In this document: in pieces, positions 4,891 through 56,386 of the stretch
Position numbering within the stretch: the stretch's first letter is position 1
Layout: each line of letters starts with the position of its first letter
Assembly: GCA_964016885.1 (NCBI GenBank)
Contig: OZ024740.1
Span: 280,984,001-281,048,000 of the forward strand
Source of the DNA: Eledone cirrhosa
Lineage: Eukaryota
Length of the DNA: 64,000 bases
Direction: 5' to 3'
The notes under the pieces: model-generated
The model's input: only the letters and a program-made list of their open reading frames with translations
Database searches by the model: none
Told to the model about the DNA's origin: nothing
Made by a program: the position numbers and the translations under genes

Positions 4891-5056
4891 CATATATATG
4901 TGTGTGTGTATATATATATTCATTATACTCTATTATTTGTTTTCTGTTTTCCGTTTACTTTTTGCACGCACATATATACAAACATATATACATAGGCATG
5001 AATACATATATACACACATATACACATACATATATATATACACACATATACACACG

Positions 5057-6389
<1,333 letters not shown>

Positions 6390-13744: not shown

Positions 13745-13777
<33 letters not shown>

Positions 13778-13778
13778 A

Positions 13779-14522
13779 CAGGGTGTCCCCAAAAATTTGA
13801 CATCATTTCGCATGCCAATAATTTTAGCAATTCTTGTTGAAATAACCTCAAATTTTCACAGAGTGTATAGAAACAGATCCAGATTTCATATTTAATGTTT
13901 TATATTGTTCGCTTTTCAGGTTGAGAAATGCCGTTCACTTCCACAGAAAAGTCATTTTGCCTCTTGGAATATGCTCGAACACAGTCACCCAAGACTGTGC
14001 AGCATGCCTTCAATGCAAAATTTCGAAAAAAAGTCACCAACTGGCAAACAAATTTGGACCTGGTACCAAATATTTAAAGAGGAAGGCTGCTTATGCAGGG
14101 CTAAAGGATCTGGAAGACCATCATCAACATCAGAAGAGAAGGTCGAGCAAGTTCGTGAAAAACTCTTGCGAAGCCCCAAGAAGTCCGTAAGGAGAACAAG
14201 TTTGGAAACCCAGATTGCTCGAATGACGGTTTGGCGTATCCTTAGGATACTGTTTGCCAGTTGGTGACTTTTTTTCCAAATTTTGCATTGAAGGCATGCT
14301 GCACAGTCTTGGGTGACTGTGTTCGAGCATATTCCAAGAGGCAAAATGACTTTTCTGTGGAAGTGAACGGCATTTCTCAACCTGAAAAGAGAAAAATATA
14401 AAACATTAAATATGAAATCTGGATCTGTTTCTATACATTCTGTGAAAATTTGAGGTTATTTCAACAGGAATTGCCAAAATTATTGGCCTGCAAAATGATG
14501 TCAAATTTTTGGGGACACCCTG
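13779..14522 (+). mobile_element. Fold-back non-autonomous Tc1/mariner-superfamily element with 272-bp inverted arms
   Basis: TA|CAGGGTGTCCC...GGGACACCCTG|TA. Arms 13779-14050 and 14251-14522. Frameshifted N-terminal HTH transposase fragment from ATG 13928 (..FKEEGCLCRAKGSGRP..RSPKKSVRRTSLE..TVWRIL). Confidence 0.9.
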
Positions 14523-14523
14523 T

Positions 14524-14611
<88 letters not shown>

Positions 14612-16289: not shown

Positions 16290-16363
<74 letters not shown>

Positions 16364-16624
16364 TTTCTTTATTAACCACAAGGGTTTACATAAAGTAGAC
16401 ATTAAGGACAGTGCAGGACAATGCAGGACGGTACAAATGGGCATTTCTGCGTGTAAAAAAAACAAAAATAGAGGATGTAACAAAAATAACAATGAAAATA
16501 ACAATGAAAAATTCCCCAATAGGGGGGAGACTTCGGAGGGACATTTGTGGAGAAAGCCCAGTAAAAAGCCACAATGACCCTGACCACCAAGGCAAGTGCC
16601 CTCTCCCAGTTTTCCACCTTTAGT

Positions 16625-19600
16625 TTACAGATATATACTCAGAGTCGGCCCATTCACTCGGGCCATTCTTGCTTCTCTCACCCATCTTTCAACAAAATGC
16701 TGGGAAGAGAGCACTTCCTTCTCTACTCTGATTTTCCTTTTCAAATGAAATTTGAAAAAGTCAATCAGAGCATCACCGAAGAGGTAAGTGCTCGTCTTCA
16801 GCCCTTTCAAACGTGTCCACCATGCTATCTCTTTCGCCATGGCCACCAGACAGATAAAAACTGCCTGCCCTTCCCGGCTAAAGGAGGAGGGCGGGGCAAT
16901 CCTCACGATAGACTCAGATGATAGCTGGATCCGTCCTAAACGCGACAGCAGGTGTTCGACATAAACCCACAAGTCAGCAATTTTCGGACACTGGACGAGT
17001 GCGTGCAGGACGGTTTCGTCGCCCTGCGCGCATCTCGGACATGCCCGGCTGACGGCACCTCCATGCCTGTAGAGTTTATCCCGAACTGGCAAGGCTCCTC
17101 GGTAGCACTGCCAGGCCAGAGATTTCTGGAAGTTGTCCATAGGCCCTGGCCCGAAAGTTCTTCCGAAGAGATTGGCTAGTTGATTTTCGTCGACGCCTAG
17201 AGTTTCCCCAAGTACGTCGTCGCTCTTCCCCTCCACTAATCCTCTATAGAACGCCGAGGTGGAGTTTCCACCGATCACATTGCCCGATTGGTCGAGGGCT
17301 GTGAGCGCCTGAAGACATTCCAGTCTCCAGGCGCTCCCTCTCGGTCTTCGCTTGACCCAGGACTGCAGCTCCGTCAAGGAAACGAGCTGGGGAAAAACGC
17401 GTCTAGCAAACGGCGACCACACCTGATCACCGTCGAGGAAGAGGTGGAGATGTCGTAGCCTGAGCGCGTGCCTGCGCATCATCAGCCACGGCATGCCCAG
17501 CCCTCCACGTAGCGGGTGTTGACAACAGATGGACCGCCTGACCATCGGAGCACGTCCCTTCCACAAAAAGCGAAAGAGCAAACGCTCCAGCGCAGTCAGG
17601 CGAGGCTTAGGACAAGGTACGACGGTTAGGCGGTAGCAGATGACAGACGCGATGTACGCGTTAGCCACCTCCGCTCGACCTTTCAGGGATAGCTTCCTCT
17701 CCGCCCATTTCTGGGTGAGAGAAGCCACCCTGCTCGTCACCTCGTCCCAGTTTTTGTCCGTCTGGAGGTCCGGACCGAACCAGACCCCTAGCAATTTAAC
17801 CGGTCCGTCCGTCCAGCGCCCGACGACGCTGTTGGACGGCATGGACCTGCCTCTCCAGGTGCCGAGCTGCAGGCCCACTGACTTTTCCTGGTTGATCATT
17901 GCTCCTGTCACCGCTTCGTATTCTCTTAGTGTAGTGCCGATCGCCTCGATGTGTTTGGCGTTCGACACCACTACGGTGACATCGTCCGCATATGCTGACA
18001 CGGATCTTCCGCATCCTAGTTCGCGCGGGACTCCCCTCAACGTCTCCAGTTTGTGCAGTAATGGCTCGAGAGTCAATACGTACAAGAGGGACGAGAGGGG
18101 ACATCCTTGGCGGACCGAGCGCATGATGTTGAACGGTTCCGACAGGTGACCGTTCACTCTCACCACAGAGCAGATGTCGCTGTGCATGGCAGCGATCCAG
18201 CCTCTGAAGACGGGCCCAAAGCCAGCCGCCCTCAGGACTGCCGCTAGGTAACGATGGTCGACCCTATCGAAAGCTTTCGACTGATCTAAATTGATCAAGG
18301 ACCCACCCGTGCCAGGTTCCCTAGCTACCCTCTCTACGATGTATCGCATGAGGTGGAGGTTGTCGTGGATGGATCTGTCGGGAATGGCGCATGTCTGCGC
18401 CTCTCCCACCAGACCACCAACGACAAGCGCCAACCTCTTTGCTAGCACCTTGGCCAAAATCTTAAACTCTGTGTTTAGCAGAGTTATGGGCCGGAAATTG
18501 TCTATGTTATCCCCCTTGTTCGGATCCTTTCTCAGCAGTGCCACCGCTCCTCGGCTCACAGAACTGGGAATTCTCCCGTTCTGTTGCCAGTTGCAGTAGA
18601 CGTCCGCCAAGAGGCCTCCGAACAAGTCTGGCATCTGTACGTAAAGTTCATAGGGCAGACCATCCAAACCAGGCGATTTACCCCTTGTGCAGCCAGTCAT
18701 TGCCTCCCGTACTTCAGCGGCTGTTATCGGCTTTTCGCAACACTTCGCCTCAGTGGCCGAGAGCCGCGGCAGTCCGTCGAGGTAGACACTAAAGTCCATC
18801 CCTCTACCCGGCCCCCCGCTGCCCCCGAACAGCTGAGCGAAGTGTCGCTGAAAAGCTTCACACATTTGCCCGGGATCGAGTAGCATGCGCCCGTCGTGGT
18901 CCACCAAAGACCGGATCGTGGCTTTGTTGCCATGACGCGCCTCCGCCACTCGGGCCCATTGAACGGCTTTCGTCCCCTCGTGTCTGAGAGCACGCACCCT
19001 AGCTCTGACAACGCAGCCTTCGTGCTTTGCATTGAAGAATTGGTCAAGGGCCAATTTCGCCGCAAGCACGTCGGTCGCAATGCCTTTGCTAAGCGCCTCG
19101 TCTAATTTTCTAACTAGTTCTCCCTCTGCTCTATTTTTCTCTATTGCTAAAGCCTTACTAAACCTAATCGATTCTATTCTAATCGCTCTTTTCAGAGCAA
19201 ACCACCACTTGTTGTTGACGATGGCCCCCGTCAACGCCCGCTTAACTAGTTCGCTAATCCGGTCTCTGTAGGCCTTGCGCGCTGGTAAGGACGCGTTTAG
19301 CTTCCAGTAGCCGGGTCCTCGTCTATGAAGCCTATCTAAGTCAAGCACACAGATCACGAATTTGTGGTCCGTGTAGCTGACTATCTTGAATTGTGGACAG
19401 CCTATGCTAGACCTATCTATTTCCCTACAAAATACTCTATCTAGATATGATCTGGATGACCCTATGCGGTTTCTCCAAGTCCACATTGGCACATTCGGGA
19501 AATCCAATCGGTACCTGTCAGACAGTTCAAAACGCCTGAGCAGGTTGGTGAGGCTCTTGCACCCTCCACCCCTATCCGCTAATCCCACACAGTCCCAGCG

Positions 19601-20044
19601 TGCATCTAAGATCCCGTTCCAGTCGCCCACTAACACTAAAGAGCGCGACGTTCCAAGAAAGGTCTCCAGACGCCGGAAGAAATCAGGCCGCCCTGCTCCT
19701 GTCGGGGCATAGACGGCCACTAGCCTGAAAGCTTGCCCGTCTCCGCTGGTCACGTCCAGCACCACCAGCTTACCCTCTGGGTCCAGGAAGATGGCCCGTA
19801 TGGCGAGATCCAAACCTCTCCGAAAAAGCACAGCAACTCCTCCACCCGATCCAGGACGGCTGGGAGATGCGTACACATCGTAGCCGCCGAAGATCGGTGC
19901 GAAGGCCCGTGCTTCGGAGATTCTGGTCTCGCTGATGGCCACTACATCTATGTTTAGTGACCTGAGGTCGTTGAGCAGGTGACCCTGCTTCCATGACGAC
20001 CCCAAGCCACGCGCATTTATGCTGCCTATTCTGAGTGAGGTCAT
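16625..20044 (-). CDS. LINE ORF2: APE endonuclease, reverse transcriptase and C-terminal zinc motif (1139 aa)
   Basis: SINARGL, SET, VYAP, GDWN, LDR, TDH; KSPGLDG, FRPITLLN, DQSKAFD, RQGCPLS, YADD; CPRC..ETVLHALVQC. Confidence 0.97.
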   Translation of the reverse strand: MTSLRIGSINARGLGSSWKQGHLLNDLRSLNIDVVAISETRISEARAFAPIFGGYDVYASPSRPGSGGGVAVLFRRGLDLAIRAIFLDPEGKLVVLDVTSGDGQAFRLVAVYAPTGAGRPDFFRRLETFLGTSRSLVLVGDWNGILDARWDCVGLADRGGGCKSLTNLLRRFELSDRYRLDFPNVPMWTWRNRIGSSRSYLDRVFCREIDRSSIGCPQFKIVSYTDHKFVICVLDLDRLHRRGPGYWKLNASLPARKAYRDRISELVKRALTGAIVNNKWWFALKRAIRIESIRFSKALAIEKNRAEGELVRKLDEALSKGIATDVLAAKLALDQFFNAKHEGCVVRARVRALRHEGTKAVQWARVAEARHGNKATIRSLVDHDGRMLLDPGQMCEAFQRHFAQLFGGSGGPGRGMDFSVYLDGLPRLSATEAKCCEKPITAAEVREAMTGCTRGKSPGLDGLPYELYVQMPDLFGGLLADVYCNWQQNGRIPSSVSRGAVALLRKDPNKGDNIDNFRPITLLNTEFKILAKVLAKRLALVVGGLVGEAQTCAIPDRSIHDNLHLMRYIVERVAREPGTGGSLINLDQSKAFDRVDHRYLAAVLRAAGFGPVFRGWIAAMHSDICSVVRVNGHLSEPFNIMRSVRQGCPLSSLLYVLTLEPLLHKLETLRGVPRELGCGRSVSAYADDVTVVVSNAKHIEAIGTTLREYEAVTGAMINQEKSVGLQLGTWRGRSMPSNSVVGRWTDGPVKLLGVWFGPDLQTDKNWDEVTSRVASLTQKWAERKLSLKGRAEVANAYIASVICYRLTVVPCPKPRLTALERLLFRFLWKGRAPMVRRSICCQHPLRGGLGMPWLMMRRHALRLRHLHLFLDGDQVWSPFARRVFPQLVSLTELQSWVKRRPRGSAWRLECLQALTALDQSGNVIGGNSTSAFYRGLVEGKSDDVLGETLGVDENQLANLFGRTFGPGPMDNFQKSLAWQCYRGALPVRDKLYRHGGAVSRACPRCAQGDETVLHALVQCPKIADLWVYVEHLLSRLGRIQLSSESIVRIAPPSSFSREGQAVFICLVAMAKEIAWWTRLKGLKTSTYLFGDALIDFFKFHLKRKIRVEKEVLSSQHFVERWVREARMARVNGPTLSIYL

Positions 20045-20078
20045 GTTTAAAATAGAGTGGAAAGATGGGAAAGACCAC

Positions 20079-22175
20079 TTACCGTATTTTTGGTAGAGGA
20101 GGGATGGTTTTTACATCCCTTTTCACTTGATCGTCTGGTGAAGGGACCGTTGAATCGTCCCTTCGGCTGGTCGTCGGCTCTTCTAAGAGAATGTCTGAAT
20201 ATACTCTTCGATTAATGGTTCCTCCTAGGTCCCTGAAATCACCAACTGCGTTGGGGAATTTCGTTTTAATGTTTGTGTATTGTTTCTGTGCTATTTTTAG
20301 CAGTCTTATGTTAGTTGGCGTTTTGATTGGTGCTGGTATTATGTAGTCCTGTTGTGAAATGTCTGTGTGTTCAATTATGTAAGTCATTAGTTTCTTGTTG
20401 TGTGTGTTTATTGCCGTGCATTTGTTTTTCTGGGGGTGGGGTGTGGTTCTGCTATTTTCTTGTCGTTGTTGCTGGGTGTGTGTGTTTTGTTGTTGTGTTT
20501 GCGATGTTGGTGCTTGTGGTGGTGGTGTTGAAGGTGTTGTTGGCGGTGGGGTTGTCGCCGGTGGTGATGGTGGTGCTGGTGTGGGTGGTGATGGTGTTGG
20601 TGGTGTTGCTGCTGTGGGTCTCTTTGCAGTAGACTTTACCCTTTTCTCATTTCTTTCCTCCCTTTTCAAAGGCGACGATGCGCTGCTTCTGCGTTTGTGC
20701 CTTCTTGAGACCTTTTGCCATCCCTCTCCCACCTCACACTCCATGTCTGATTCTGTAAGGTCGGGGAGGGGTACCAGCTCCACTCTTTCACTTGTTGTTG
20801 TTGGTGATGTTTGCACTGGAGTCTCTGTTGCAGCTGCATTTGGTATTGCTGTTGTTGTTGTTAATATTTCCACTGCTGCTGCTGTCTTTGATTTCCGTGG
20901 AGTGGGTATGGGTGCCACGGACCTATCGTTCCTGGTTGCCGCTTGTCCTGTTGCTGGTAGCCGTGGAACCGGATTCGGGAGGAGGGGGGTTTTCTCCTTT
21001 CTCAGGGTCTTCTCGTTGCAGAAGGCCCTGAGGTGAGTCTTCGATCCACAGCGAAAGCATTTCGGTCGTTTGCCCTCAACACTTATGGGCAGTTGAGTGC
21101 CGTTATCGAAGTCTATCACATCCGGGATAGCTTCGATGCACTCCTGGTTGGTTTGGATTAGCATCTCAATGGAGGAGCCGACCCAATCTTCTCTTACTTT
21201 TTTCTGTACTTGCAGTACAGTTGTTTTGTCCTCGATTCCGACGAGGACAGACGCGGCCAGCCAAGAAGGGGTCATTCCGGGGGGGACGTGGGTCAGTTTG
21301 ACCCTCACAATTTTTTGCCCGCAGTAGGAGGGCACCAACACCATTTCCTCGCTCCTTAGGGTCACTACTGATTGGGCCTTTGCCTCCTGGGGTGTGGCAA
21401 AAAGTACGTCTACGGTGGCGTATTTTTTGCCTCGGGTGATGTGCGTTTTCCTCTGCCACACAGACCCCAAGGCTTTTTGTATTTGGGCCTCTGTGGCTCT
21501 TTCCACCCTACGGGATTTTGTACTTACTGTACGGTACGTGACCGTACAGTGCTCTTGGGTTTCGAAAAAATTTTTCGCTGCCTTGCAGATTGCTCGGTGT
21601 CCGTTCTTTGTCACCATCTTCTTCGCTTCCTCTAATTCCTCATTTGTTATGAGGATTGTTTCCAGGTTTTTCGCAATACCTGCAAATGAGATTGGTTTTT
21701 CTCTGCTGTTGTTGTTGTCGTCAGAGCTGCTGGTACTTTTGTTGTTGCTGCAGGTACTACGACTACTGCCTCCGCCGCTGTTGCTGTGGTTGTTGTTGGT
21801 GTTGCTGCTGCTAATGCTGTTGTTGTTTATGCTGCTGGTGATGCTGTTGCGGCTGCTACTGTTGTTTTCATTGTCACTGTTGCTGTTGTTATTACGGCTG
21901 CTACTGCTATTATTCCTGACGTCAGACGAATGAACTGGGTTTTCGTATTTCCCGCACACCTGTTTCGTCGCTGTCGTCGTCGTCGTGGAGAAACCTTGCA
22001 CGCTTTGCACGAGACTTTTCTTTTCTTTCGTCGCTTGCGAAAGAGAAGGGAGGGAGAGAGACACATTTAAAGAAGGGAGGGAGAGAGACAATCTTCTCTC
22101 TCCTGTAGTGATGATTGAGGAAGAAGAAGACGGAATGAGTGGGAGTGACGTATGAAATTTCTTTTTGGTAGCCAT
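20079..22175 (-). CDS. LINE ORF1 with a CCHC zinc knuckle
   Basis: EGKRPKCFRCGSKTHLRAFC and N/S-rich and P/T-rich low-complexity segments. First ATG (MATKK) at 22175, conserved in copy B. Confidence 0.9.
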   Translation of the reverse strand: MATKKKFHTSLPLIPSSSSSIITTGERRLSLSLPSLNVSLSLPSLSQATKEKKSLVQSVQGFSTTTTTATKQVCGKYENPVHSSDVRNNSSSSRNNNSNSDNENNSSSRNSITSSINNNSISSSNTNNNHSNSGGGSSRSTCSNNKSTSSSDDNNNSREKPISFAGIAKNLETILITNEELEEAKKMVTKNGHRAICKAAKNFFETQEHCTVTYRTVSTKSRRVERATEAQIQKALGSVWQRKTHITRGKKYATVDVLFATPQEAKAQSVVTLRSEEMVLVPSYCGQKIVRVKLTHVPPGMTPSWLAASVLVGIEDKTTVLQVQKKVREDWVGSSIEMLIQTNQECIEAIPDVIDFDNGTQLPISVEGKRPKCFRCGSKTHLRAFCNEKTLRKEKTPLLPNPVPRLPATGQAATRNDRSVAPIPTPRKSKTAAAVEILTTTTAIPNAAATETPVQTSPTTTSERVELVPLPDLTESDMECEVGEGWQKVSRRHKRRSSASSPLKREERNEKRVKSTAKRPTAATPPTPSPPTPAPPSPPATTPPPTTPSTPPPQAPTSQTQQQNTHTQQQRQENSRTTPHPQKNKCTAINTHNKKLMTYIIEHTDISQQDYIIPAPIKTPTNIRLLKIAQKQYTNIKTKFPNAVGDFRDLGGTINRRVYSDILLEEPTTSRRDDSTVPSPDDQVKRDVKTIPPLPKIR

Positions 22176-22404
22176 GTTTTTGTTTAAAATGAAATTTTGG
22201 GTACAAAACCCCAATAACTGGCTATTTAACCCCGAAGGGCCAAATAACGGACAGAAAGACCCCTCTCACGAGGAGGAGGGTGTCTTTATCAACAATTTGG
22301 TTCAAGTTTTAAACAATTTACAATTGTTTTAACGGTTAAAAATTACTATACCTTACAGAGCCGAGCCTCCGTCAACCATGGCATTCAATAATAATAATAA
22401 TAAT

Positions 22405-24480: not shown

Positions 24481-24545
24481 TAACAATAACAATAATAATA
24501 ATAATAATAATAATTGTTTCTACTTTAGGCACAAGGCCAGCAATG

Positions 24546-29101: not shown

Positions 29102-29125
29102 AATAACAATAACAATAATAATAAT

Positions 29126-29224
29126 TGTTTCTACTTTAGGCACAAGGCCAGCAATGACCCAGTGCATTACTGGTACTTTATTTTATCGACCCCGTAAGGA
29201 TGAAAGGCAAAGTTAACCTCGGCG
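29126..29224 (-). mobile_element. 5'-truncated Deu/Nin-domain SINE between AAT tracts
   Basis: Reverse complement of the 3' half of the 8792-8998 family. Confidence 0.75.
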
Positions 29225-29236
29225 AATAATAATAAT

Positions 29237-32200
29237 GATTTCTTTATTAACCACAAGGGTTTACATAAAGTAGACATTAAGGACAGTGCAGGACAATACA
29301 GGACGGTACAAATGGGCATTTCTGCGTGTAAAAAACAAAAACAGAGGATGTAACAAAAAAATAACAATGAAAAATTCCCCAATAGGGGGGAGACTTCGGA
29401 GGGACATTTGTGGAGAAAGCCCAGTGAAAGGCCACAGTGACCCTGATCACCAAGGCAAGTGCCCTCTCCCAGTTTTCCACCTTTAATTTACAGATATATA
29501 CTCAGAGTAGGCCCATTCACTCGGGCCATTCTTGCTTCTCTCACCCATCTTTCAACAAAATGCTGGGAAGAGAGCACTTCCCTCTCTACTCCGATTTTCC
29601 TTTTCAAATGAAATTTGAAAAAGTCAATCAGAGCATCACCGAAGAGGTAAGTGCTCGTCTTCAGCCCTTTCAAACGTGTCCACCATACTATCTCTTTCGC
29701 CAAGGCCACCAGACAGATAAAAACTGCCTGCCCTTCCCGGATAAAGGAGGAGGGCGGGGCAATCCTCACGATGGACTCAGATGATAGCCAGTTCCGTCCT
29801 AAACGCGACAGCAGGTGTTCGACATAAACCCACAAGTCAGCAATTTTCGGACACTGGACGAGTGCGTGCAGGACGGTTTCGTCGCCCTGCGGGGCATCTC
29901 GAACATGCCCGGCTGACGGCACCTCCATGCCTGTAGAGTTTATCCCGAACTAGCAAGGCTCCTCGGTAGCACTGCCAGGCCAGAGATTTCTGGAAGTTGT
30001 CCATAGGCCCTGGCCCGAAAGTTCTTCAGAAGAGATTGGCTAGTTGATTTTCGTCGACGCCTAGAGTTTCCCCAAGTACGTCGTCGCTCTTCCCCTCCAC
30101 TAATCCTCTATAGAACGCCGAGGTGGAGTTTCCACCGATCACATTGCCCGATTGGTCGAGGGCTGTGAGCACCTGAAGACATTCCAGTCTCCAGGCGCTC
30201 CCACTCGGTCTTCGCTTGACCCAGGACTGCAGCTCCGTCAAGGAAACGAGCTGGGGAAATACGTGTCTAGCAAACGGCGACCACACCTGATCACCGTCGA
30301 GGAAGAGGTGGAGATGTCGTAGCCTGAGCGCGTGCCTGCGCATCATCAGCCACGGCATGCCCAGCCTTCCACGTAGCGGGTGTTGACAACAGATGGACCG
30401 CCTGACCATCGGAGCGCGTCCCTTCCACAAAGAGCGAAATAGCAAACACTCCAGCGCAGTCAGGCGAGGCTTAGGACAAGGTACGACGGTCAGGCGGTAG
30501 CAGATGACAGACGCGACGTACGCGTTAGCTACCTCCGCTCGACCTTTCAGGGATAGCTTCCTCTCCGCCCATTTCTGGGTGAGAGAAGCCACCCTGCTCG
30601 TCACCTCGTCCCAGTTTTTGTCCGTCTGGAGGTCCGGACCGAACCAGACCCCTAGCAATTTAACCGGTCCGTCCGTCCAGCGTCCGACGACGCTGTTGGA
30701 CGGCATGGACCTGCCTCTCCAGGTGCCGAGCTGCAGGCCCACTGACTTTTCCTGGTTGATCATTGCTCCTGTCACCGCTTCGCATTCTCTTAGTGTAGTG
30801 CCGATCGCCTCGATGTGTTTGGCGTTCGACACCACTACGGTGACATCGTCCGCATATGCTGACACGGATCTTCCGCATCCTAGTTCGCGCGGGACGCCCC
30901 TCAACGTCTCCAGTTTGTGCAGTAATGGCTCGAGAGTCAATACGTACAAGAGGGACGAGATGGGACATCCTTGGCGGACCGAGCGCATGATGTTGAACGG
31001 TTCCGACAGGTGACCATTCACTCTCCCCACAGAGCAGATGTCGCTGTGCATGGCAGCGATCCAGCCTCTGAAGACGGGCCCAAAGCCAGCCGCCCTCAGG
31101 ACTGCCGCTAGGTAACGATGGTCGATCCTATCGAAAGCTTTCGACTGATGTAAATTGATCAAGGACCCACCCGTGCCAGGTTCCCTAGCTACCCTCCAAC
31201 GACAAGCGCCAACCTCTTTGCTAGCACCTTGGCTAAAATCTTGAACCCTGTGTTTAGCAGAATTATGGGCCTGAAATTATCTATGTTATTCCCCTTGTTC
31301 GGATCCTTTCTCAGCAGTGCCACCGCTACTCGGCTCACAGAGCTGGGAATTCTTCCGTTCTGTTGCCAGTTGCAGTAGACGTCCGCCAAGAGGCCTCCGA
31401 ACAAGTCTGGCATTTGTACGTAAAGTTCATAGGGCAGACCATCCAAACCAGGCGATTTACCTCTTGTGCAGCCAGTCATTACCTCCCGTACTTCAGCGGC
31501 TGTTATCGGCTTTTCGCAACACTCCGCCTCAGTGGCCGAGAGCCGCGGCATTTCGTCGAGGTAGACACTAAAGTCCATCCCTCGACCCGGCCCACCGCTG
31601 CCCCCGAACAGCTGAGCGAAGTGTCGCTGTAAAGCTTCACACATTAACCCGGGATCGAGTAGCATGCGCCTGTCGTGGTCCACCAAAGACCGGATCGTGG
31701 ATTTGTTGCCACGACGCGCCTATGCTACCCGGGCCCATTGAACGGCTTTCGTCCCCTCGTGTCTGAGAGCACGCACCCTAGCTCTGACAACGCAGCCTTC
31801 GTGCTTTGCATTGAAGAATTGGTCAAGGGCCAATTTCGCCTTTGTAAGCGCCTCGTCTAATTTTCTAACTAGTTCTCTCTCTGCTCTATTTTTCTCTATT
31901 GCTAAAGCCTTACTAAACCTAATGGATTCTATTCTAATCTCTCTTTTCAGAGCAAACCACCACTTGTTGTTGACGATGGCCCCCGTCAACGCCCGCTTAA
32001 CTAGTTCGCTAATCCGGTCTCTGTAGGCCTTGTGCGCTGGTAAGGACGCGTTTAGCTTCCAGTAGCTGGGTCCTCGTCTATGACGCCTATCTAAGTCAAG
32101 CACACAGATCACGAATTTGTGGTCCGTGTAGCTGACTATCTTGAATTGTGGACAGCCTATGCTAGACCTATCTATTTCCCTACAAAGTATTCTATCTAGA

Positions 32201-35138
32201 TATGATCTGGATGACCCTATGCTATTTGTCCAGGTCTACATTGGCACATTCGGGAAATCCAATCGGTGCCTGTCAGACAGTTCAAAACGCCTGAGCAGGT
32301 TGGTGAGGGTCTTGCACCCTCCACCCCTATCCGCTAATCCCACACAGTCCCAGCGTGCATCTAAGATCTCGTTCCAGTCGCCTACTAACACTAAAGAGCG
32401 GGACGTTCCAAGAAAGGTCTCCAGACGCCGGAAAAAATCAGGCCGCCCTGCTCCTGTCGGGGCATAGAAGGCCACTAGCCTGAAAGCTTGCCCGTCTCCG
32501 CTGGTCGCGTCCAGCACCACCAACTTACACTCTGGGTCCAGGAAGATGGCCCGTATGGCGAGATCCAAACCTCTCCGAAAAAGCACAGCAACTCCGCCCC
32601 CCGATCCAGGACGGCTGGGAGATGCGTACACATCGTAGCCGCCGAAGATCGGTGCGAAGGCCCGTGCTTCGGAGATTCTGGTCTCGCTGATGGCCACTAC
32701 ATCTATGTTTAGTGACCTGAGGTCGTTGAGCAGGTGACCCTGCTTCCATGACGACCCCAAGCCACGCGCATTTATGCTGCCTATTCTGAGTGAGGTCATG
32801 TTTAAAATGGAGTGGAAAAGATGGAAAAGACCACTTACCGTACTTTTCGTAGAGGAAGGATGGTTTCTCCATCCCTTTTCACTTGATCGTCTGGTGAAGG
32901 GACCGTTGAATCGTCCCTTCGGCTGGTCGTCGGCTCTTCTATGAATATGTCCGAATATACTCTCCGGTTGAGAGTCTCTCCTAGGTCTCTGAAATCACCA
33001 ACTGCGTTGGGGAATTTCGTTTTAAAGTTTGTGTATTGTTTCTGTGCTATTTTTACCAATCTTATGTTCGTTGGTGTTTTGATTGGTGCTGGTATTATGT
33101 AGTCGTGCTGTGAAATGTCTGTGTGTTCAATTATGTAAGTTATTAGTTTCTTGTTGTGTGTATTTATTGCCGTGCATTTGTTTTTCTGGGGGTGGGGTGT
33201 GGTTCTGCTATGTTCTTGTCGTTGTTGCTGGGTGTGTGTGTTTTGTTGTTGTGTTTGCGATGTTGGTGCTTGTAGTGGTGGTGTTGAAGGTGTTGTTGGC
33301 GGTGGGGTGGTGGTGCTAGTGTGGGTGGTGATGGTATTGGTGGTGTTGCTGCTGTGAGTCTCTTTGCAGTAGCCTTTACCCTTTTTTCATTTCTTTCCAC
33401 CCTTTTCGAAGGCGACGATGCGCTGCTTCTGCGTTTGTGCCTTCTTACGACCTTTTGCCATCCCTCTCCCACCTCATACTCCATGTCTGATTCCGTAAGG
33501 TCGGGGAGGGGTACCAGCTCCACTCTTTCACTTGTTGTTGTTGGTGATGTTTGCAGTGGAGTCTCTGTTGCAGCTGCATTTGGTATTACTGTTGTTGTTG
33601 TTAATACTTGCACTGCTACTGCTGTTCTTGATTTCCGTGGCGTGGGTATGGGTGCCACGGACCTATCGTTCCTGGTTGCCGCTTGTCCTGTTGCTGGTAG
33701 CCGTGGAGCCGGTTTCGGAAGGAGGGGGGTTTTCTCCTTTCTCAGGGTCTTCTCGTTGCAGAAGGCCCTGAGGTGAGTCTTCGATCCACAGCGAAAGCAT
33801 TTCGGCCGTTTGCCCTCAACACTTATTGGCAGTTGAGTGCCGTTATCGAAGTCTATCACATCCGGGATAGCTTCGATGAACTTCTGTTTGGTTTGGATTA
33901 ACATCTCAATGGAGGTGCCGACCCAATCTTCTCTTACTCTTTTCTGTACTTGCAGTACAGTTGTTTTGTCCTCGTCGGAATCGAGGCCAGCCAAGAAGGG
34001 GCCATCCCGTGGGGGGGGGGGGGGGCGTGGGTCAGTTTGACCCTCACAATTTTTTGCCCGCAGTAGGAGGGCACCAACACCATTTGCTCGCTCCTTAGGG
34101 TTACTAAGGATGGAGCTTTTGCCTCCTGGGGTGGGGCAAAAAGCACGTCTACGGTGGCATATTTCTTGCCTCGTGTGATATGCGTTTTCCGCTGCCACAC
34201 AGACCCTAAGGCTTTTTGTATTTGAGCCTCTGTGGCTCTTTCAACCCTACGGGATTTTGTGCTTACTGTACGGTACGTGACCGTACAGTGCTGTTGGGTT
34301 TCGAAAAGTTTTTCGGCTGCCTTGCAGATTGCTCGGTGTCCGGTTTTAGTCACCATCTTCTTCGCTTCCTGTAATTCCTCATCTGTTATGAGGATGGTTT
34401 CCAGGTTCTTTGCGATACCTGCAAACGAGATTGGTTTTTCTTTGCTGCTGTTGTTGTTGTTGTTGTCGTCAGAGCTGCTGTTACTTTTGTTGTTGCTGCA
34501 GGTACTACGACTACTGCCGCCGCCGCTGTTGCTGTGGTTGTTGTTGTTGTTGCTGCTGCTGCTGTTGTTGTTTATGCTGCTGCTGATGCTGTTGCGGCTG
34601 CTACTGTTGTTTTCCTTGACACTATTGCTGCTGCTCTGTTATTACGGCTGCTACTGCTATTATTCATGACGTCAGACGAATGAAATGGGTTTTCGTATTT
34701 CTCGCACACCTTTTTTGTCGTTGTCGTCGTCGTCGTGGAGAAATTTTGCACGCTTTGCACGTGATTTTTCTTTGCTGGCGTCGCTTGCGAAAGAGAAGGG
34801 AGGGAGCGAGACACATTTAGGGAAGGGAAGGAGAGAGACAATCTTCTCTCTGCTGTAGTGACGATTGAGGAAGAAGAAGACGGAATGAGTTGGAGTGACC
34901 TATGAAAGTTCTTTTTCGTAGCCATGTTTTTTTTTGTTTAAAATAAATATTGGGCACAAAACCCCAATAAGCGGCTATTTAACCCCGAAGGGCCAAATAA
35001 CGGACAGAAAGACCCCTCTCACGAGGAGGAGGGTGTTTTGCCTACAAGTTGGTTAAAGTTTGAAACAATTTACAATTGTTATAGCTGTCAAAATTTACAA
35101 TACCTTACAGAGCCGAGCCTCCGTCAACCATGGCATTC
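29237..35138 (-). mobile_element. Full-length but disrupted Tx1-clade LINE (copy B, same family as A) in (AAT)n
   Basis: ORF1 from 34925 and ORF2 32799-29488 are broken by frameshifts, stops and an ~85-bp deletion near 31195; same termini as A. Confidence 0.95.
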
Positions 35139-35156
35139 AATAATAATAATAATAAT

Positions 35157-35333
35157 TGTTTCTAATTTTGGCACAAGGCCATCAATTAAACCAGTGTATT
35201 ACTGGTACTTTATTTTATCGACCCCATAAGGATGAAAGGTAAAGTTAACCTCGGCGGGATTTGAACTCGGTCCGTAAAGGGACGTAACTGTGCTGCAAAG
35301 CATGGCACCCGACCCTCTACCGATACTGCCAAT
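35157..35333 (-). mobile_element. Deu/Nin-domain tRNA SINE flanked by AAT tracts
   Basis: A and B boxes plus TTTCATCCTTATGGGGTCGATAAAATAAAGTACC on the minus strand. Other copies at ~37500-37690, ~39068-39175, ~56810-57000 and ~63015-63165. Confidence 0.8.
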
Positions 35334-35358
35334 TAATAATAATAATAATAATAATAAT

Positions 35359-36324
35359 GATTTCTTTATTGGCCACAAGGGCTGACATCAAGAAAAACAT
35401 TACAGACGGCACAGGACGGTACAGGACGGTACAGGATGGTACGACGTGCGTTTTGTGCGTGTAAAGATTTTTATTATTTATATAAGAAACGAAAAAGAAA
35501 AAAGACATAGAAACATATATATATATATATATATATATATAAACAATAAAAATGAAAATTGAAACAATGAAATATTCCCCAATAGGGGGGAATCCTCCGA
35601 GGGTTACTCGTGGCGAAAACCATACAAAAGACGACGATCACCCTTACCACCAGGGCAAGCACACTCTCTCAATTTTTTCCCATTCCTCAAACTACAAGCG
35701 TATATTTAGAGCGGTCCCGTTCACTCGGACCATTCTCGCTACATTCACCCACCTTTCAACAAACTTGCTAGAAGACAGCACTTGCCTCTCCACCCTGATT
35801 TTCCTCTTCAAATCAAACTTGAAAAAGTTAATCAGGGATTCGCCGAAGAGGAAAGTGTCTGTCTTTAACCCTTTCAACCTTGTCCACCACACAATCTCTT
35901 TCGCTATGACCACCAGGCAGATGAAAACCGCCTGCCCTTCCTCCTCGAAGCAAGACGGCGAGACCATCTGCGCAATGGACTCAGTCGATAATCGGATCGG
36001 TCCTACACGCGACAGCAACTATTCGACATAGCTCCACAAGTCAGCAATGCTCGGGCACTGAACGAGTGCGTGTACGACGGTTTCATCGCTCTGCGTGCAT
36101 CTCAGACAGGCTCGGCTGACGGCACTTCCGTGCCTGTAGAGCTTATCTCGAACCGGCAAAGCTCCCCGGTAGCACTACCAGGCCAGGGATTTCTGGAAGT
36201 TATCCATAGGCCCTGGGCTGAAAGTTCTCCGGAAGAGAGCAAACATCTGATTTTCTTCGACACCCAGGATCTCTCCGAGAACGTCGTCACTCTTCCCCTC
36301 CACTAGTCCTCTATAGAACGCCGA
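35359..36324 (-). mobile_element. 5'-truncated, diverged Tx1-clade LINE (copy E) in (AAT)n
   Basis: C-terminal ORF2 (..WWTRLKGLKT..FVERWVNVARM..), AATAAA plus (ATT)n tail, AAT repeats at the 5' junction. Confidence 0.9.
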
Positions 36325-45964: not shown

Positions 45965-46139
45965 AACTATAGTAGGTAAAGTCAATTTTTTAAAATTTAT
46001 TTTGAAACTCTTTCATTATTTGCTAAGCCTTGATTATATATATATATATATATATATATAGTTATTTACGAATACACAAGCACACACATATACATATTTC
46101 TTGATATACGAGTATATATATATATATGTAAATACATAA

Positions 46140-46229
<90 letters not shown>

Positions 46230-46332
46230 ACATATATATACATATATATACGTATGTATATATATACATATATATATACATATATAAATATACATATATG
46301 TATGTATATGTGTGTGTTTTGGTATTCGTAAA

Positions 46333-46368
<36 letters not shown>

Positions 46369-48243: not shown

Positions 48244-48372
48244 TTACAAATTATAAGTCCATAAATTGACACAATGCTATATCCATCTATGATAAGTGAG
48301 TGCACTTAGGCATAAATCTTCATAACAATTCAAACTAGATGCATTTTCTGAATATATAATTTGGTGGAAAGC

Positions 48373-48514
<142 letters not shown>

Positions 48515-50160
48515 TTATGCCGATGACGTGACAGTAATGGTGTCGACGGCCTCCGAAATCGAGGCGGTCGGCACCTTACTGGAGGAGTACGAAAAGTTCA
48601 CAGGGGCTAAGCTGAACCGGGACAAGTCGATCGGTTTGCAACTCGGCACGTGGAGGGGCAGACCGATGCCCTCCGATGGCGTCGTCGGACGCTGGACGGA
48701 GGGCCCGGTGAAGTTGCTCGGGGTCTGGTTCGGACCGGACCTCCAGGTGGAGAAAAACTGGGCGGAGGTTACGAACAGGGTGTTTGCACTGACCCAGAAG
48801 TGGGCCAGTTGCAAACTATCCCTGAAAGGTCGGGCGGAGGTGGCGAACACCTACATAGCGTCCGTCATCTACTACCGCCTGACCGTAGTGCCCTGCCCAA
48901 GGGAAACCCTCACCAAGATGGAGCGCGCGCTCTTCCAATTCCTTTGGAAGAGGCGGGCTCCTATGGTGAGGAGATCCATCTGCTGTCAACACCCTTCGAA
49001 AGGAGGGCTGGGGATGCCGTGGCTAATGATGCGTAAACACGCATTAAGGCTACGGCACCTCTACGTATTCCTCACCGGACAACCGGTGTGGGCCTCGTTT
49101 GTGAGACGAACCTTTCCCAGACTCGTCTCACTCACCGAGCTGCAATCCTGGGTCAAGCAAAGACCGAGAAAACTGGGCGCCTGGCACACTGAGTGTGCCC
49201 AGGCGCTCACCGCCCTCTGGCAGGCGGATCCGGTTATCAGTGGAGACTCCACCGCAACATTCCATAGAGGGCTGGTACGCAGCAGGTGCGACGACGCCCT
49301 CGGAGAAGCCCTAGACATGGAGGAGGACGAACTGGCCAGCCTGTTCGGTAGGACATTCAGCCCGGGACCTATGGACAACTTCCAGAAGTCCCTGGCCTGG
49401 CAGTGCTACCGAGGGGCTTTACCCGTTCGAGAAAGGCTCTACAGACACGGGCGCCCGGGTAGGGACCCCGCCAAAAAGATCTGTCCCAGATGCGTGTGCG
49501 ACGAGGAAACCGTTGCACACGCATTGGTACAGTGCTCGGGCGTAGCCGATCTGTGGGGCTATGTCGAACAACTGCTGTCAAGGGTGGGACCGATCCGGTT
49601 GACCACCGAGTCTATTGTAATGATCAAGCCGCCTCCCCTCTTCAAAGATGAAGCAGAGGCGGTGTTTCTGTGCGTAATAGCCATGGCGAAAGAGGTTGTA
49701 TGGTGGACGCGTCTGAAAGGACTGAGGTCAGGCACCTTTCTCTCTGGCCAACAACTGGTCCGTTTCTTCCGATATCATTTCGGAAGAAGGATCAGGATGG
49801 AGAGAGAGGTGCTGCACCCCAGCCGTTTCTATGAAAGATGGGTGAAAGTGGCGAGAATGGCCCGTGTGAATGGGCCTTCACTCTACATCAGACTATAGGT
49901 GAGGAAGATGAAAGACCAAGGGAGCACCCCTTCTCTGTGCTCCTGAGGAGAAGGGTTGCACACTTTTTTCGGGGGTGTGTGCGACCCCCCAAGGCGCCTC
50001 CTCTCTATTGAGGATTTTGTTAAAAATTTTATTTTTTGTTATATCTTATTTTATTTTTATATTTTGTTATTGCCTCCTCCTTATTGAGGACGCCTTTTTG
50101 TGTAAACTCCCCCTTTGTACTTGTCCCACTTTTGATGCCCTAGTGGCAAATAAAAGAAAC
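48515..50160 (+). mobile_element. 5'-truncated Tx1-clade LINE (copy D) in (ATCT)n
   Basis: Starts at the YADD codons; open ORF2 C-terminal half to 49898; AATAAA then (ATCT)n. Confidence 0.93.
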
Positions 50161-50165
50161 ATATC

Positions 50166-50235
<70 letters not shown>

Positions 50236-50436
50236 GATAGAGTAAGACACGCTTCGCATCGGCTCCGCTATTCCATCGGGATTTACCCTTACTATTGTAA
50301 GTACCGGATAAATTTTTTAGTGCAACACATTTGGAACACTAACCCCTGTTATTTAGGGAAACATTTTTGCATTTACCCCCTTTTTAGGGGGTAAAATAAA
50401 TATCTATTTTTGCCGAAAAATTTCTTTCTTGGCAGC

Positions 50437-52272
50437 ATGGCGGAAAAGATGGCAGACATGTCTGCCATTAGCTCTGCCACGCCCCCCAAGTCTGAAGAAC
50501 AAAAAATAATTACAACAAAATTAGACATTGAAACAAACAAACAAAATGAAAAAACAAATGTTAAGGAAAATGAGCAAACAGAAAACAAACAAACAGAAAA
50601 TAATACAAATAACGACAGGGCAACTTTCGCCCAGAAAACAAAGCAATCCATTACATACACACCAATTGACCTAACTGCCGCCAGAGAAAAACTGGCCGAA
50701 GCAAAGAAACATATTGTTTTGGGGGAGAACGGAATGTTTTCCATTAACTCCCCCCCAGAATTCAAGAAAGCCAGAGCAGAAAACACAGTTATATACAGAA
50801 CTATACTAAACCAGTCAAGAAAGCCAGCACAGCCCAGCCAAATGGAAATAGAGTTAGTCCTAAAAGACTATATGAAGAATATTCTCTTCATACGAAAGGA
50901 CCGACTCTATGGCAGCATTTCGGTCCTAACAAGAGACAAAGAAACGGCGGTTCAGCTTTCCCTAAGCCCACTCTCGTCGACAACATATAGCTTCTATCCC
51001 TCCTACATGGGTAGAAGAACACAGAGAGTAAAAGTAAAAACAATGCTGCCCACAATGGACTTCTGGTGGGCTATTGCTGGCTTCATTGATATGGGCGAAG
51101 ACACTATGCTGTCAATGGGGAAGGCAACTGGAGATGCGTTCCTGGGAATGGGCCTCGACATACTAGTCCAAATGAGGCCCGAAAGAATAGCACAAATCCC
51201 GGATCGCATCTGGCTGGATGACCTTACCCCAATAGACATAATTGTAGAGGGGAGAAGACCAGCATGCTATTTATGCATGGAAAGGGGACACGTTAAGGCT
51301 AACTGCCCGAAACGTATCCCCCAAAAAGGACTATTGCCCACACCCACCACAAACAGTACACCAGCACCACCCACCTCCAAAAATACACTAATACCACACA
51401 CAGCAAACAAAATACAGACACCACCAACCACAAACACAACACAAACATCACCACCACCAGCACCAAACACAAGCACGACACAAAAATCACCACCACCAAC
51501 CACAACACAAACATCACCACCACCATTACCAACCACAAGCACGACACAAACATTACCACCACCACCACCACAAAACCCATTCCAAACAAATAATAAAAAA
51601 AACAGTAACAAATCTACCCCTCCCGCAAAATAAAAACAACCACACAACACGTCCCTCCCACCTAGCGCTGAAGAGTTTCCCCCAACTTCTGAAGAAGAAG
51701 GAGGAGAAGCCTTCAGACAAGTTAAAAGAAAAAAAAGAAAACACACACCCAGCACACCACAAATAACCCACACACAAACACCAACTCCAATCAAAAACAC
51801 CCCACCCTCAACAAACAAAAATAAATCTGCGCCTCCCCTCTCCGAAACATTGACAGCATCACAAAAAAAGACGTTGCAATACACATATATAAATAAAGAA
51901 AACAAAATACTGGTTAAATTAATAAACAATAACCCTATGGTGCAGACCGAAGGGCCAAACTTTATCTCAACAGAGAACTTCACCCATTTAAAAATGATAA
52001 AGGTCCCTCTGGACCTTTATCGTTCCTTAAAAGAACAATTTAGACGGGACGTGAGCCCCCCCTGTTTAAAACCGTTGAATCGCGTCCTCTTGAAAGATTT
52101 CCCCATAACCGCCCCTCTCCCTGACACAACTCCAAATACCCCAACCCCACCACACACGTGTACCCCCACACCACCACAAAACATCCCTCCACCCAACACA
52201 CCTGATGCCATGGAAATTACGCAACCCGGAGAGGTAAGTGCTTTTCTTTCTTCACTTTCAACACCAAAATAG
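50437..52272 (+). pseudogene. LINE ORF1 (CCHC knuckle) with one in-frame TAA at 51631-51633
   Basis: VEGRRPACYLCMERGHVKANC; ORFs 50410-51633 and 51850-52272 are in the same frame. Confidence 0.85.
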
Positions 52273-55200
52273 ATCAATTGAGAGTTGGCTGTTTGAACGC
52301 GCGTGGCCTGAGCTCAGCTTGGAAGCAAGCAAAGCTTCTAAGTGACCTCAGGTCACAAAGTATAGATGTGATGGTTGTTTGCGAGAGTCGGATCAGCAGC
52401 GTGAGACAGCTGGCGCCCGCCTTCGATGACTTTGAGATGCACGCATCTCTCTGTCAACCCGGAGGCGGGGGGGGAGTTGCCGTACTGCTGGATAAACGTC
52501 TGACTCTCGACGTACAGATTGTTCACTCGGACCCGGGGGGTCGATTACTGGTGCTGGACGTCGGAGGTGGTGAAGGCGGGGCTTTCAGACTGGTCGGTCT
52601 TTATGCTCCCTTCGGGGCGGAGAGAGCCGACTTCTTCCAACGTCTGGAGACTTTTCTAGGAACGTCGCGTTCCCTGCTTTTAGTGGGGGACTGGAATGGA
52701 ATCCTAGATGCGCGTTGGGACTATGCAGGGGCATGTCCCGATAGAGGGGGGTGTAGCAGCCTCAAGGGGTTACTCGATCGATTCGACCTGGTCGATAGAT
52801 TTCGACTAGATTGTCCAACTGCGCCAACCTGGACCTGGGCAAACCGCAGTGGACAATCTAGATCGTACCTAGATAGGTTTTTGGTTAGGAGTAAGGATAG
52901 GGACGTATTTAGTTGTCCAGAACTGATCATGGTTGGCTATTCAGATCACAAATTAGTGACCTGCGTGGTCAACCTTGATAGAACGCATAGACAGGGTCCC
53001 GGTTACTGGAAGATGAACTTGTCCTTACCGACAAAGAAAGATTACAGAAACCGGATTAGTAGCTTAGTTAAGATGCGGTTGACGGGAGCGATCGTCAACA
53101 GTAGGTGGTGGATATCTCTAAAGAGAGAGATTAGAGTAAGTTCGATAGGTTACAGTAAGGAACTAGCGGCGAATAGAAATAGGAGGGAAAGGGAGTTAAC
53201 AGATAAACTAGAAGAGGCGATTAGGAGCGGAGACGTAGCCAGAGTGTTAGCGACGAGAACGGCATTGAGCCAGTTCTTTGACGCGAAGCACGAAGGCTGC
53301 GTTGTCCGAAGTAAAATACGTGCTTTAGGAAACGAGGGGACCAAAGCTGTTAGCTGGGCCCGCGTGACAGAAGCCAAGAGTGGGATTAAATCCACCATTC
53401 GGTCTTTGCGAGACCAGGATGGACGGGTGATCCTTGAACCTGAGCGAATGTGCGAGACCTTTCAAAGGCACTTTGCTCGACTGTTCGGAGGTGGCGGGGG
53501 GCCGGACGGGGATGTGGACTTCGGTCCATACCTCGACGGTCTACCGCGTCTTTCGAGCGGCGAAGCGGAGTGCTGCGAAGGGCCAATCACAGCCACTGAA
53601 ATCGGGGAAGCGCTCAGCCAATGCAGCAGACGCAAATCCCCGGGTCTCGATGGTCTACCATACGAACTTTATTTAGCTATGCCGGTCTTGTTCTCCGAAC
53701 TCCTCGAGGCTGTCTATTGCAACTGGCAACAGAACGGGAGAATTCCCTGTTCTGTGACCAAGGGCGTGGTCACGCTAGTGAGGAAGGACGAGAGCAAGGG
53801 GGACGACTTAAGTAACTTTAGGCCCATAACTCTGCTGAATGCAGAGTTACAGATTTTGGCCAAGGTGTTGGCGAAGAGGTTGGCGCTTGTGGTGGGTGGT
53901 TTGGTGGGAGACGCGCAGACATGCGCTATCCCGTCCAGGTCCATTCACGACAACCTCCACCTCATGCGATACATCATAGAGAGGGTTGGCTACGAACCCG
54001 GCTTTGGTGGGGCCCTGATCAACTTGGATCAATCTAAGGCGTTCGATAGGGTCGACCATGGTTACCTGGATGCGGTGCTAGCGGCGGCGGGCTTCGGACC
54101 CGTTTTCAGGGGCTGGATTTCTGCCATGCACAGTGGCAACATCTACTCTAGGATTAAAGTAAACGGCTACCTCTCGGAGCCGTTTCAAATCACCCGATCC
54201 ATCAGACAGGGGTGCCCCCTCTCCTCCCTTCTGTACGTATTGACTCTCGAGCCACTGCTGCGGAAGTTGGAGTTGCTGCGGGGCATACCCCTGGAACCGG
54301 GATTGCACAAAGCGGTCTCGGCCTATGCCGACGACGTAACAGTAATGGTGGCGGACGCCTCGGAAATCGGGGCGATCGCCACCCTACTGGAGGAATACGA
54401 AAGGCTGACGGGGGCTAAGCTGAACCAGGACAAGTCAGTCGGTTTGCAACTCGGAACGTGGAGGGGCAAACCGATGCCGTTAGACGGTGTCGTCGGGCGG
54501 TGGACGGAGGGCCCGGTGAAGCTGCTCGGGGTCTGGTTCGGACCGGACCTCCAGGTGGAGAAGAATTGGGGCGAGGTGACGAGCAGGGTGTTTGCGCTGA
54601 CCCAGAAGTGGGCCAAGTGCAAACTATCACTGAAAGGTCGGGCGGAGGTGACGAACGCTTACATAGCGTCCGTCATCTACTACCGCCTGACCGTCGTGCC
54701 TTGCCCCAAGGAAAAGCTCACCATCATGGAACGCATGCTCTTCCAGTTCCTCTGGAAGAAGCGGCCTCCCATGGTGAGGAGATCCATCTGCTGCCAGCAC
54801 CCTTCGAAAGGAGGGCTGGGTATGCCGTGGCTGTTGATGCGTAGGCACGCATTGAGGCTACGGCATCTACAGGTATTCCTCAACGGTCAGCCGGTGTGGG
54901 CCCCGTTTGTGAGGCGAGCCTTCCCACAGCTCGTCTCGCTCACCGAACTGCAATCCTGGGTGAAGCAAAGACCGAGAAAACTGGGCAACTGGCACACTGA
55001 GTGTGCCCAGGCGCTCACGGCTATCTGGCAAGCGGACCCGACTGTCAGTGGAGAATCCACCTCGACATTCTATAGAGGGTTGGTGGCTAGCAGGGGCGAC
55101 GACACCCTTGGAGAGTCGCTAGGCATGGAGGAGGACGAACTGGCCAGCCTGTTCGGTAGAACTTTCGGCCCGGGACCCATGGACAACTTCCAGAGGTCCC

Positions 55201-55705
55201 TAGCCTGGCAGTGTTACCGGGGGCTCTGCCCGTTCGAGAAAAGCTCTACAGACACGGGCGCCCAGGCAGGGATCCCGCGAAAAAGATCTGTCCCAGATGC
55301 GTGCGCGACGAGGAAACCGTTGCGCATGCACTGGTACACTGCCCGGGCGTTGCCGATCTGTGGGGCTACGTCGAACGACTGCTGTCGCGTGTGGCGCCGA
55401 TTCGATTAACCGCCGAGTCTGTGGTGAACATCAAGCCGCCTCCTCCCTTCAGAAATGAAGCAGAGGCGGTCTTTCTGTGCGTAATAGCCATGATGAAAGA
55501 GGTTGTGTGGTGGACGCGCCTGAAAGGTCTGAGGTCGGGTGACTTTCTCTCCGGCCATCACCTGGTTTACTTCTTCCGATACCACTTCGGAAGAAGAATC
55601 AGGATGGAGAGAGAAGTGCTTGGTCCCAGACAGTTTTATGAAAGGTGGGTGAAAGAAGCGAGAATGGCCCGTGTAAATGGGCCTTCTCTCTACATTGTTC
55701 TGTAG
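52269..55705 (+). pseudogene. LINE ORF2 (APE-RT) with ATA at the expected start and a 1-bp frameshift near 55222
   Basis: LNARGL, GDWN, SDH, RQGCPLS, YADD, CPRC..ETVAHALVHC; colinear with copy A ORF2. Confidence 0.92.
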
Positions 55706-56386
55706 GTGAAGAAGTGAAGAGGAAAGGGGGAGCGCCTCCTCTCTGGGCTTCCCCCGCGAAAAGAGTTGCACACTTTTCGGGGGTATGTGCAATCCCCAAC
55801 ACGCCCCCTCCCTTTTGAGGACTTTTTATTGTTATATTATTATTGTTATTCCTTTTTTCTTTACTCGATTTATGTAAACTCCCCCACTGTGTAAATGTCC
55901 CCTTCTTTTGTGCCCTCGTGGCAAATAAATAGAAATTTATCTATGGATGTGTGTATGTATGCATATGTGAGTGTGTGTATAGGTACATACTAAATAAATT
56001 GATATGTAACCGTACGGGAACACTCCACATTAACGTACAATTACCAATCACATACATACTATAATTTTAGAATATTCTTCCCTTTAACATTTACAAGCCA
56101 GACTGAATCTATTTAATTGGAATGTCTTCAATGTTAAATATATTACCGAAGCCCATTGTTGTACGAAATATGACTTTTAAGGAATCAAGTTTCATGATCT
56201 AAACTACCTTTCAGATTTTCTATATAACACACACACACACTCACACACATACACACACACACACATACGCACTCGCACACACACATACACAAACAGATAC
56301 GCACCCTCGCGCACACGCACACACACACACACATGCACACACACACACAGATACACACCCGCGCGCACACGCACACACACACATAC

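Follow-up and report, generated by a model that had tools for sequence, protein, structure and literature searches.

Why should a long interspersed nuclear element (LINE) carry a perfect 5′ splice site at the border between its two open reading frames (ORFs)? The question is raised by a 64,000-nucleotide (nt) stretch of the Eledone cirrhosa genome (assembly GCA_964016885.1, contig OZ024740.1, positions 280,984,001 to 281,048,000 of the forward strand), which we call the window and to which all coordinates refer. It contains five related copies of a two-ORF LINE, of which A and C are full length, B is degenerate, and D and E are 5′-truncated. The RNAs of LINEs are expected to lose splice sites, since a spliced RNA gets copied and an excess of the ORF1 protein (ORF1p) is usually put down to translation. 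An initial annotation of the window had proposed that splice signals bracket ORF2, the reverse transcriptase (RT) gene, and that the whole gene may be an intron. Judged by its conservation, the donor of that proposal is real and under selection. The account of it that we rank first, with a probability of roughly 0.4, is that the motif would bind the U1 small nuclear ribonucleoprotein (snRNP) and act mostly without ORF2 being spliced out.

A consensus donor had been placed at 52234-52239 (+) in C, 20082-20077 (−) in A, and 32838-32833 (−) in B, and we found it at each of these positions:

52234..52239, plus strand: junction 5′ splice-site motif of C, in phase 0 of ORF1
20077..20082, minus strand: junction donor of A, in phase 2, with the ORF1 TAA stop at +2 to +4
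52241..52263, plus strand: pyrimidine tract after the donor of C

The distance to the ORF2 start, given as 35-38 nt, is right for C (35 nt) and A (38 nt), but B measures 39 nt. The families had been called unrelated around the donor, which they are not: ORF2 of A and ORF2 of C are 71% identical as DNA, which makes the two families related, and both have the pyrimidine tract that follows the donor.

Further families were gathered by DNA, protein, and pattern searches, for which 160 stretches were fetched, and 16 subfamilies of this genome were each represented by one natural copy. The motif G/GTRRGT (the slash marks the splice position) is present at the junction in all 16 and in a distant relative from outside this genome. 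A script found the strict form in 60 of the 66 copies that span both ends of ORF2 (from 120 longer stretches and the first 40), and of the other six, three are point mutants, while an internal deletion, a truncation, and a motif beyond the range scanned by the script account for one each. G(−1), G(+1), T(+2), G(+5), and T(+6) are invariant across the subfamilies and positions +3 and +4 are kept in 14 of 16, while the flanks (−7 to −3 and +7 to +11) are less kept, at 6-12 of 16. The sole variants among the subfamilies, GTGAGT (2) and GTAGGT (2), are common donor hexamers. Coding cannot account for this pattern, because ORF1 crosses the motif in all three phases (phase 0 in 2, phase 1 in 4, and phase 2 in 10 subfamilies); owing to the phase 2 crossing, +5 and +6 are non-coding in ten of them. 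Elsewhere in the elements GGTARGT occurs 5 times in 85,110 bases, or about 0.0035 times per 60-nt window, so that its presence at the junction exceeds chance. The junction site is also the best or tied-best match to U1 among the 269-327 GT sites of each of eight families, and the pyrimidine tract behind it ranks in the top 2% of the element in all seven families tested from this genome; the tract is absent in the outside relative.

The outside relative, which occurs as tandem arrays in one assembly (L181-L222), has 41% ORF2 identity and sits on a long branch of the tree. In all 51 occurrences there (overlapping loci) the motif lies 1 nt past the ORF1 stop; 13 nt separate it from the ATG, and four-fold sites retain just 0.19-0.50 identity to the Eledone families, which is near saturation. 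Chance, or passive inheritance of a stop-codon context, might be invoked on the grounds that the TAA in the motif of phase 2 subfamilies is the ORF1 stop and that the Eledone families are related; yet the motif has outlasted frame changes, insertions and deletions on both sides, and saturation of neutral sites, which largely refutes this explanation and leaves it scarcely credible. Among 45 distant L1/Tx1-like loci with a placeable ORF2 start (22-34% identity), none has the donor within 90 nt. Occurring in two hosts and missing from these loci, the donor is a trait of a lineage and not of LINEs in general.

If the whole RT ORF were a retained intron, the donor would be joined to an AG at or just after the ORF2 stop. 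The spliceosome would then yield an ORF1-only mRNA with the 3′ untranslated region (UTR) and almost the same ORF1p, the intron-retaining form would be the template for retrotransposition, and the splicing state of the host would set the amount of RT. The 3′ contexts put forward for this are as claimed: the stop of C at 55705, that of D at 49898, that of E at 35694-35692, and AAG/GTG 7 nt after the TAA stop in A and B. The sites concerned in C and A are the following:

55682..55705, plus strand: candidate 3′ splice site at the ORF2 TAG stop of C (unproven)
16618..16620, minus strand: weak AAG acceptor of A, whose use leaves ORF1 open for at least 70 further codons
16447..16470, minus strand: acceptor-like site with the highest score in A, 177 nt past the stop within the U-rich 3′ UTR, and not kept in sister family E

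How well these sites serve as acceptors was judged by a simple score of our own (pyrimidines, YAG, and G at +1) rather than a trained model. The ORF2 stop is the top-ranked acceptor in C (1 of 262 AGs), but in C only: it ranks about 30 in D and 15 in E, and the site of A ranks 51. Conservation likewise gives the proposal partial backing. YTR-TAG closes ORF2 in 15 of 16 subfamilies, the outside relative also has TAG there, in 14 of the 16 subfamilies a G comes next, and the stop AG ranks 15 or better among some 260 AGs in 14 of 16 and third among 92 conserved AG columns (score averaged over seven families). Against this, family A has lost its TAG, and 33 other ORF2 columns keep YAG in at least six of seven families through coding conservation. 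Pairwise retention at comparable codons ending in A or G is mostly 0.6-0.9, which makes a kept TAG unsurprising, and the C-terminal peptide forces pyrimidines, with no consistent extra pyrimidine bias at the four-fold sites there. The acceptor that scores highest in the outside relative is 51 nt past the ORF2 stop, which fits excision of ORF2.

The spliced product of C had been predicted to end in PGE/VKK and a stop, and it reads so from the sequence. More generally, in 10 of 16 subfamilies a stop follows the notional join within 4 codons in the phase of ORF1; the permutation mean is 5.6 and p is 0.005 with kinship ignored, a value that is too small because of the clustering of phases on the tree. 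For D and I, splicing would leave ORF1p unchanged. These early stops favor excision, but the same prediction, written beforehand from the first families, held in only 3 of 8 held-out subfamilies (K-type 1 of 3), and the six that fail among the 16 would gain 28 to 99 or more codons. On such evidence the acceptor, weaker than the donor, strong in C and ordinary in A, D, and E, is not established.

Precisely spliced ORF1-only retrocopies had been suggested as a further sign of excision. We searched for them with exact-match patterns that join the last bases of exon 1 to non-intron sequence, each of which misses some possible first bases of the second exon; the patterns cover families A, C, D, E, and F/G and leave out the K- and M-type subfamilies. 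Within that scope none were found. There were no matches in C (against 377 unspliced copies) or in a narrow subfamily of A, and a broad search of A returned two matches, both small deletions (against 1,924 unspliced copies). The single match in D was a point variant, with none from a second pattern (against 890 unspliced copies); that in E was a small insertion, and the 21 in F/G were unspliced variants, total copies being uncounted in these last two. HAL1-like ORF1-only offspring starting at the donor, which had also been envisaged, were not found either. A short cDNA would suffice to make such copies, and as a spliced RNA keeps its 3′ tail and Tx1 families are described, in the available part of one report, as likely to mobilize short interspersed nuclear elements (SINEs) in trans (PMC4494074), copies would be expected. 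Their lack weighs just moderately against excision, however, since L1-type proteins favor their own RNA, according to the accessible part of another (PMC5860796).

A perfect donor, an uncertain acceptor, and no spliced offspring are most simply accounted for by a mainly non-excising U1 site, and the U1-binding site that the initial annotation had kept as a fallback fits the data at least as well as the intron does. U1 at the junction would probably decide whether transcripts continue intact through ORF2. On the model of the plant element EVD, its binding would guard the full-length RNA from premature cleavage or decay, and the donor may thereby affect the ratio of ORF1p to ORF2p; minor splicing to the ORF2-stop AG may occur alongside. 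In EVD, as the available text describes, a conserved U1 site makes a gag-only RNA possible and also keeps the full-length RNA from terminating prematurely, as it does when the site is mutated (PMC5580714). Several observations sit poorly with this account. Eight families yielded no conserved canonical poly(A) signal that U1 could be suppressing: AATAAA upstream is near the shuffled expectation in six of the eight, at non-homologous sites, and AATAAA or ATTAAA occurs within 1.5 kb downstream in four only. With no guarded poly(A) site found, the protection step is one that we infer. Real splicing would better explain why 15 of 16 subfamilies stop ORF2 with TAG and why 10 of 16 meet an early stop in the matching phase after the notional join, and in nine phase 2 subfamilies part of the motif doubles as a TAA, TAG, or TGA stop. 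An AATAAA that had seemed conserved about 315-345 nt upstream, in six of seven families, was discarded as near chance at non-homologous sites.

Excision of ORF2 is the serious rival to this U1 role. On the sequence evidence above we hold it to be rather unlikely, while ranking it before a signal for translation or protein binding and, after that, splicing elsewhere. The first of these, that the motif merely resembles a donor and serves termination-reinitiation for ORF2 or binds a protein at the DNA or RNA level, would explain why its placement follows that of the ORF2 start (at 13 nt in the outside relative, about 30-45 nt in the Eledone families), why it usually overlaps or adjoins the ORF1 stop, and how family C comes by the AUG-less initiation that it needs. 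There are precedents in the accessible parts of two reports, a human L1 donor that lies on a RUNX3 site (PMC5860796) and reinitiation in SART1 and L1 (PMC5972666). The invariant positions and tolerated variants nevertheless match the 5′ splice-site consensus position by position, and the ORF1 stop varies in placement from before the motif to 36 nt after it, so we regard such a signal as improbable. Slightly less probable still is that the donor is spliced elsewhere, either to an AG inside ORF2 with early termination, as in EVD, or to an AG in flanking host DNA, again giving an ORF1-only RNA. At about +450, +565, +1880, and +2840 there are conserved YAG columns whose scores match that of the stop AG, and RNAs of this kind could be without the 3′ tail, which would explain the missing retrocopies. 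But the columns track conserved amino acids, just the one at +565 is common to the outside relative, and the +450 and +565 sites have no conserved poly(A) signal downstream.

The pyrimidine tract behind the donor, with an in-frame AG in A, D, and I, might instead point to a mini-intron of 40-60 nt that runs to an AG at the ORF2 start and fuses the two ORFs in frame. C, however, has no in-frame AG for ORF1, and ORF1 of the outside relative ends before the donor. As the fusion RNA encodes RT in cis, it should dominate the genomic copies; no intron-less copies were found by the exact-match patterns, which effectively refutes the fusion and puts its probability close to nil. Evasion of HUSH was also set aside, intron protection being independent of the 5′ splice site as far as the consulted part of the source goes (PMC8770142).

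Family C raises a separate question of translation. At the position given as its ORF2 start, all 10 fetched copies have not ATG but ATA, which overlaps the ORF1 stop (window 52269-52272), and no ATG, ATC, or ATT turned up when the genome was searched for them at this place. ORF2 of C is open for 1,165-1,166 codons in 5 of 10 fetched loci, its first methionine lying inside the endonuclease. This suggests that family C, with 377 young copies, relies on AUG-less reinitiation or on mobilization in trans. Frameshifting by −1 was rejected: inspection of A and C by eye showed no canonical slippery heptamer, and the two ORFs stand in different frame relations from family to family.

The copies themselves, with the parts of C, are as follows:

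50234..55936, plus strand: copy C, full-length Tx1/L1-type LINE inside an (ATCT)n tract; 377 junction matches
50437..52272, plus strand: ORF1 of C, with CCHC knuckle and Pro/Thr-rich linker; this copy alone has a premature stop, at 51633
52269..55705, plus strand: ORF2 of C, with APE endonuclease, RT, and zf-RVT; ATA start, which overlaps the ORF1 TAG, and in this copy a frameshift near 55220
55924..55929, plus strand: poly(A) signal of C
16350..22386, minus strand: copy A, full-length, both ORFs open, inside an (ATT)n tract
29225..35160, minus strand: copy B, degenerate member of family A, with its donor at 32838-32833
48516..50184, plus strand: copy D, 5′-truncated; donor present in its family (890 copies)
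35334..36324, minus strand: copy E, 5′-truncated; donor present in its family

ORF2 encodes an APE endonuclease, an RT, and a C-terminal zf-RVT (Pfam PF03372, PF00078, and PF13966). The separate ORF1 of A, C, and the outside relative has a CCHC knuckle, read by pattern, and gave no Pfam hits. The copy of C in the window is damaged, by the premature ORF1 stop at 51633 and the late ORF2 frameshift, in contrast to several intact relatives. Across the 3.0-Gb host genome, junction-exact copies number 377 for C, 890 for D, and 1,924 for A (3,191 in total), and the families are young and abundant, with both ORFs open in many copies. The copies shown are flanked, often in tandem, by (ATT)n tracts for A, E, F, and G and by (ATCT)n tracts for C, D, and I. 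The Tx1 label fits this architecture and target preference; the RT tree behind it was a quick search with long outgroup branches and no named Tx1 references.

An (ATCT)n tract links C and D in a nested head-to-tail arrangement (window 48360-55960), and many genomic copies form tandem arrays with a spacing of 5.7-6.1 kb, as expected if elements insert into tracts that earlier copies left. Two copies of an unrelated RT element, at 22405-24545 and 25602-29156 (+), abut A and B in (ATT)n tracts. Their C-terminus resembles a restriction-like endonuclease, and they may be R4/Dong-like. A short repeat of 110-190 nt, possibly a SINE with the same target, adjoins (ATT)n tracts at 8792-8994, 29107-29251, 35138-35333, 37488-37689, and 39036-39178. 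Long inverted repeat pairs of 552, 308, and 328 nt, at 5004-6324, 13743-14558, and 46035-46362, resemble fold-back or miniature inverted-repeat transposable elements.

Other donor-like sites were seen in these elements, one of them in C:

50297..50302, plus strand: second donor-like GTAAGT of C, about 60 nt from the 5′ end; counterparts in L275, L257, L292, and L185

Five of eight families (C, D, G, I, and the outside relative) have such a GTRAGT about 30-120 nt from the 5′ end, followed by U-rich sequence, which is possibly a promoter-proximal U1 site. Skipping of ORF1 from this 5′ donor to the inter-ORF tract was rejected, as an AG precedes the ATG in F and G only and no D copies depart at the 5′ donor (total uncounted). 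In the outside relative, a GTRAGT 14 nt past the ORF2 stop is kept across subfamilies (L185:7479-7520 and other units of L181-L222), with a strong pyrimidine tract and an AG 34-53 nt beyond it. Both the 5′-end and the post-stop hexamers are retained in all copies examined. E, F, and copy B (window 32528) have another perfect donor hexamer inside the endonuclease region, about +310 from the junction donor; A, C, D, G, and I do not. The L181-L222 record, titled as a bacterial metagenome-assembled genome, has dozens of LINE units, each of 6.4 kb and arrayed in tandem, spread over about 17 contigs; it is probably animal host DNA in a microbial bin. No relatives were found among viral contigs.

In the literature that we searched, whose coverage leaves out most subscription papers, Repbase, and supplements, we saw no account of a conserved donor where ORF1 and ORF2 of a LINE meet. 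The repeat annotation of Octopus vulgaris lists 13 recently active L1-Tx1 families, and the string "splic" does not occur in its main text (PMC13282606). Among Tx1-clade elements, Kibi and Koshi share the two ORFs, the APE and RT domains, and insertion into microsatellites, while the targets here are (ATT)n and (ATCT)n and the accessible text on Kibi and Koshi mentions no junction donor (PMC4494074). HAL1, as partly available (PMC5753468), is the form that an ORF1-only retrocopy would take; none arising from the donor was found here. Human L1, with its splice sites and its spliced integrated retrotransposed elements (SpIREs), is likewise a LINE with a conserved, seldom used donor, but in the text at hand that donor lies in the 5′ UTR on a RUNX3 site and spliced copies make up about 2% of full-length insertions (Larson et al. 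2018, PMC5860796), whereas the Eledone donor is at the ORF junction and no spliced copies were found. The closest precedent is Arabidopsis EVD and plant Ty1/Copia, where a conserved 5′ splice site near the border of the structural and enzymatic parts is better kept than its acceptor and U1 binding serves both splicing and protection of the full-length RNA. As far as the consulted text goes, EVD differs in being a long terminal repeat element with one polyprotein, a short intron coupled to early termination, and proof from RNA and mutants (Oberlin et al. 2017, PMC5580714); the Eledone element is a bicistronic LINE, known here from sequence conservation. Thousands of young copies have scattered strong donors through the host genome. 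That this lineage has kept a perfect U1 site between its ORFs, despite changes of frame and in more than one host, suggests regulation through RNA processing, which would parallel the plant Ty1/Copia strategy independently. If ORF2 does act as an intron, the ORF1-only mRNA would correspond, in a LINE, to the gag-only RNA of Copia, and would be conserved between hosts.

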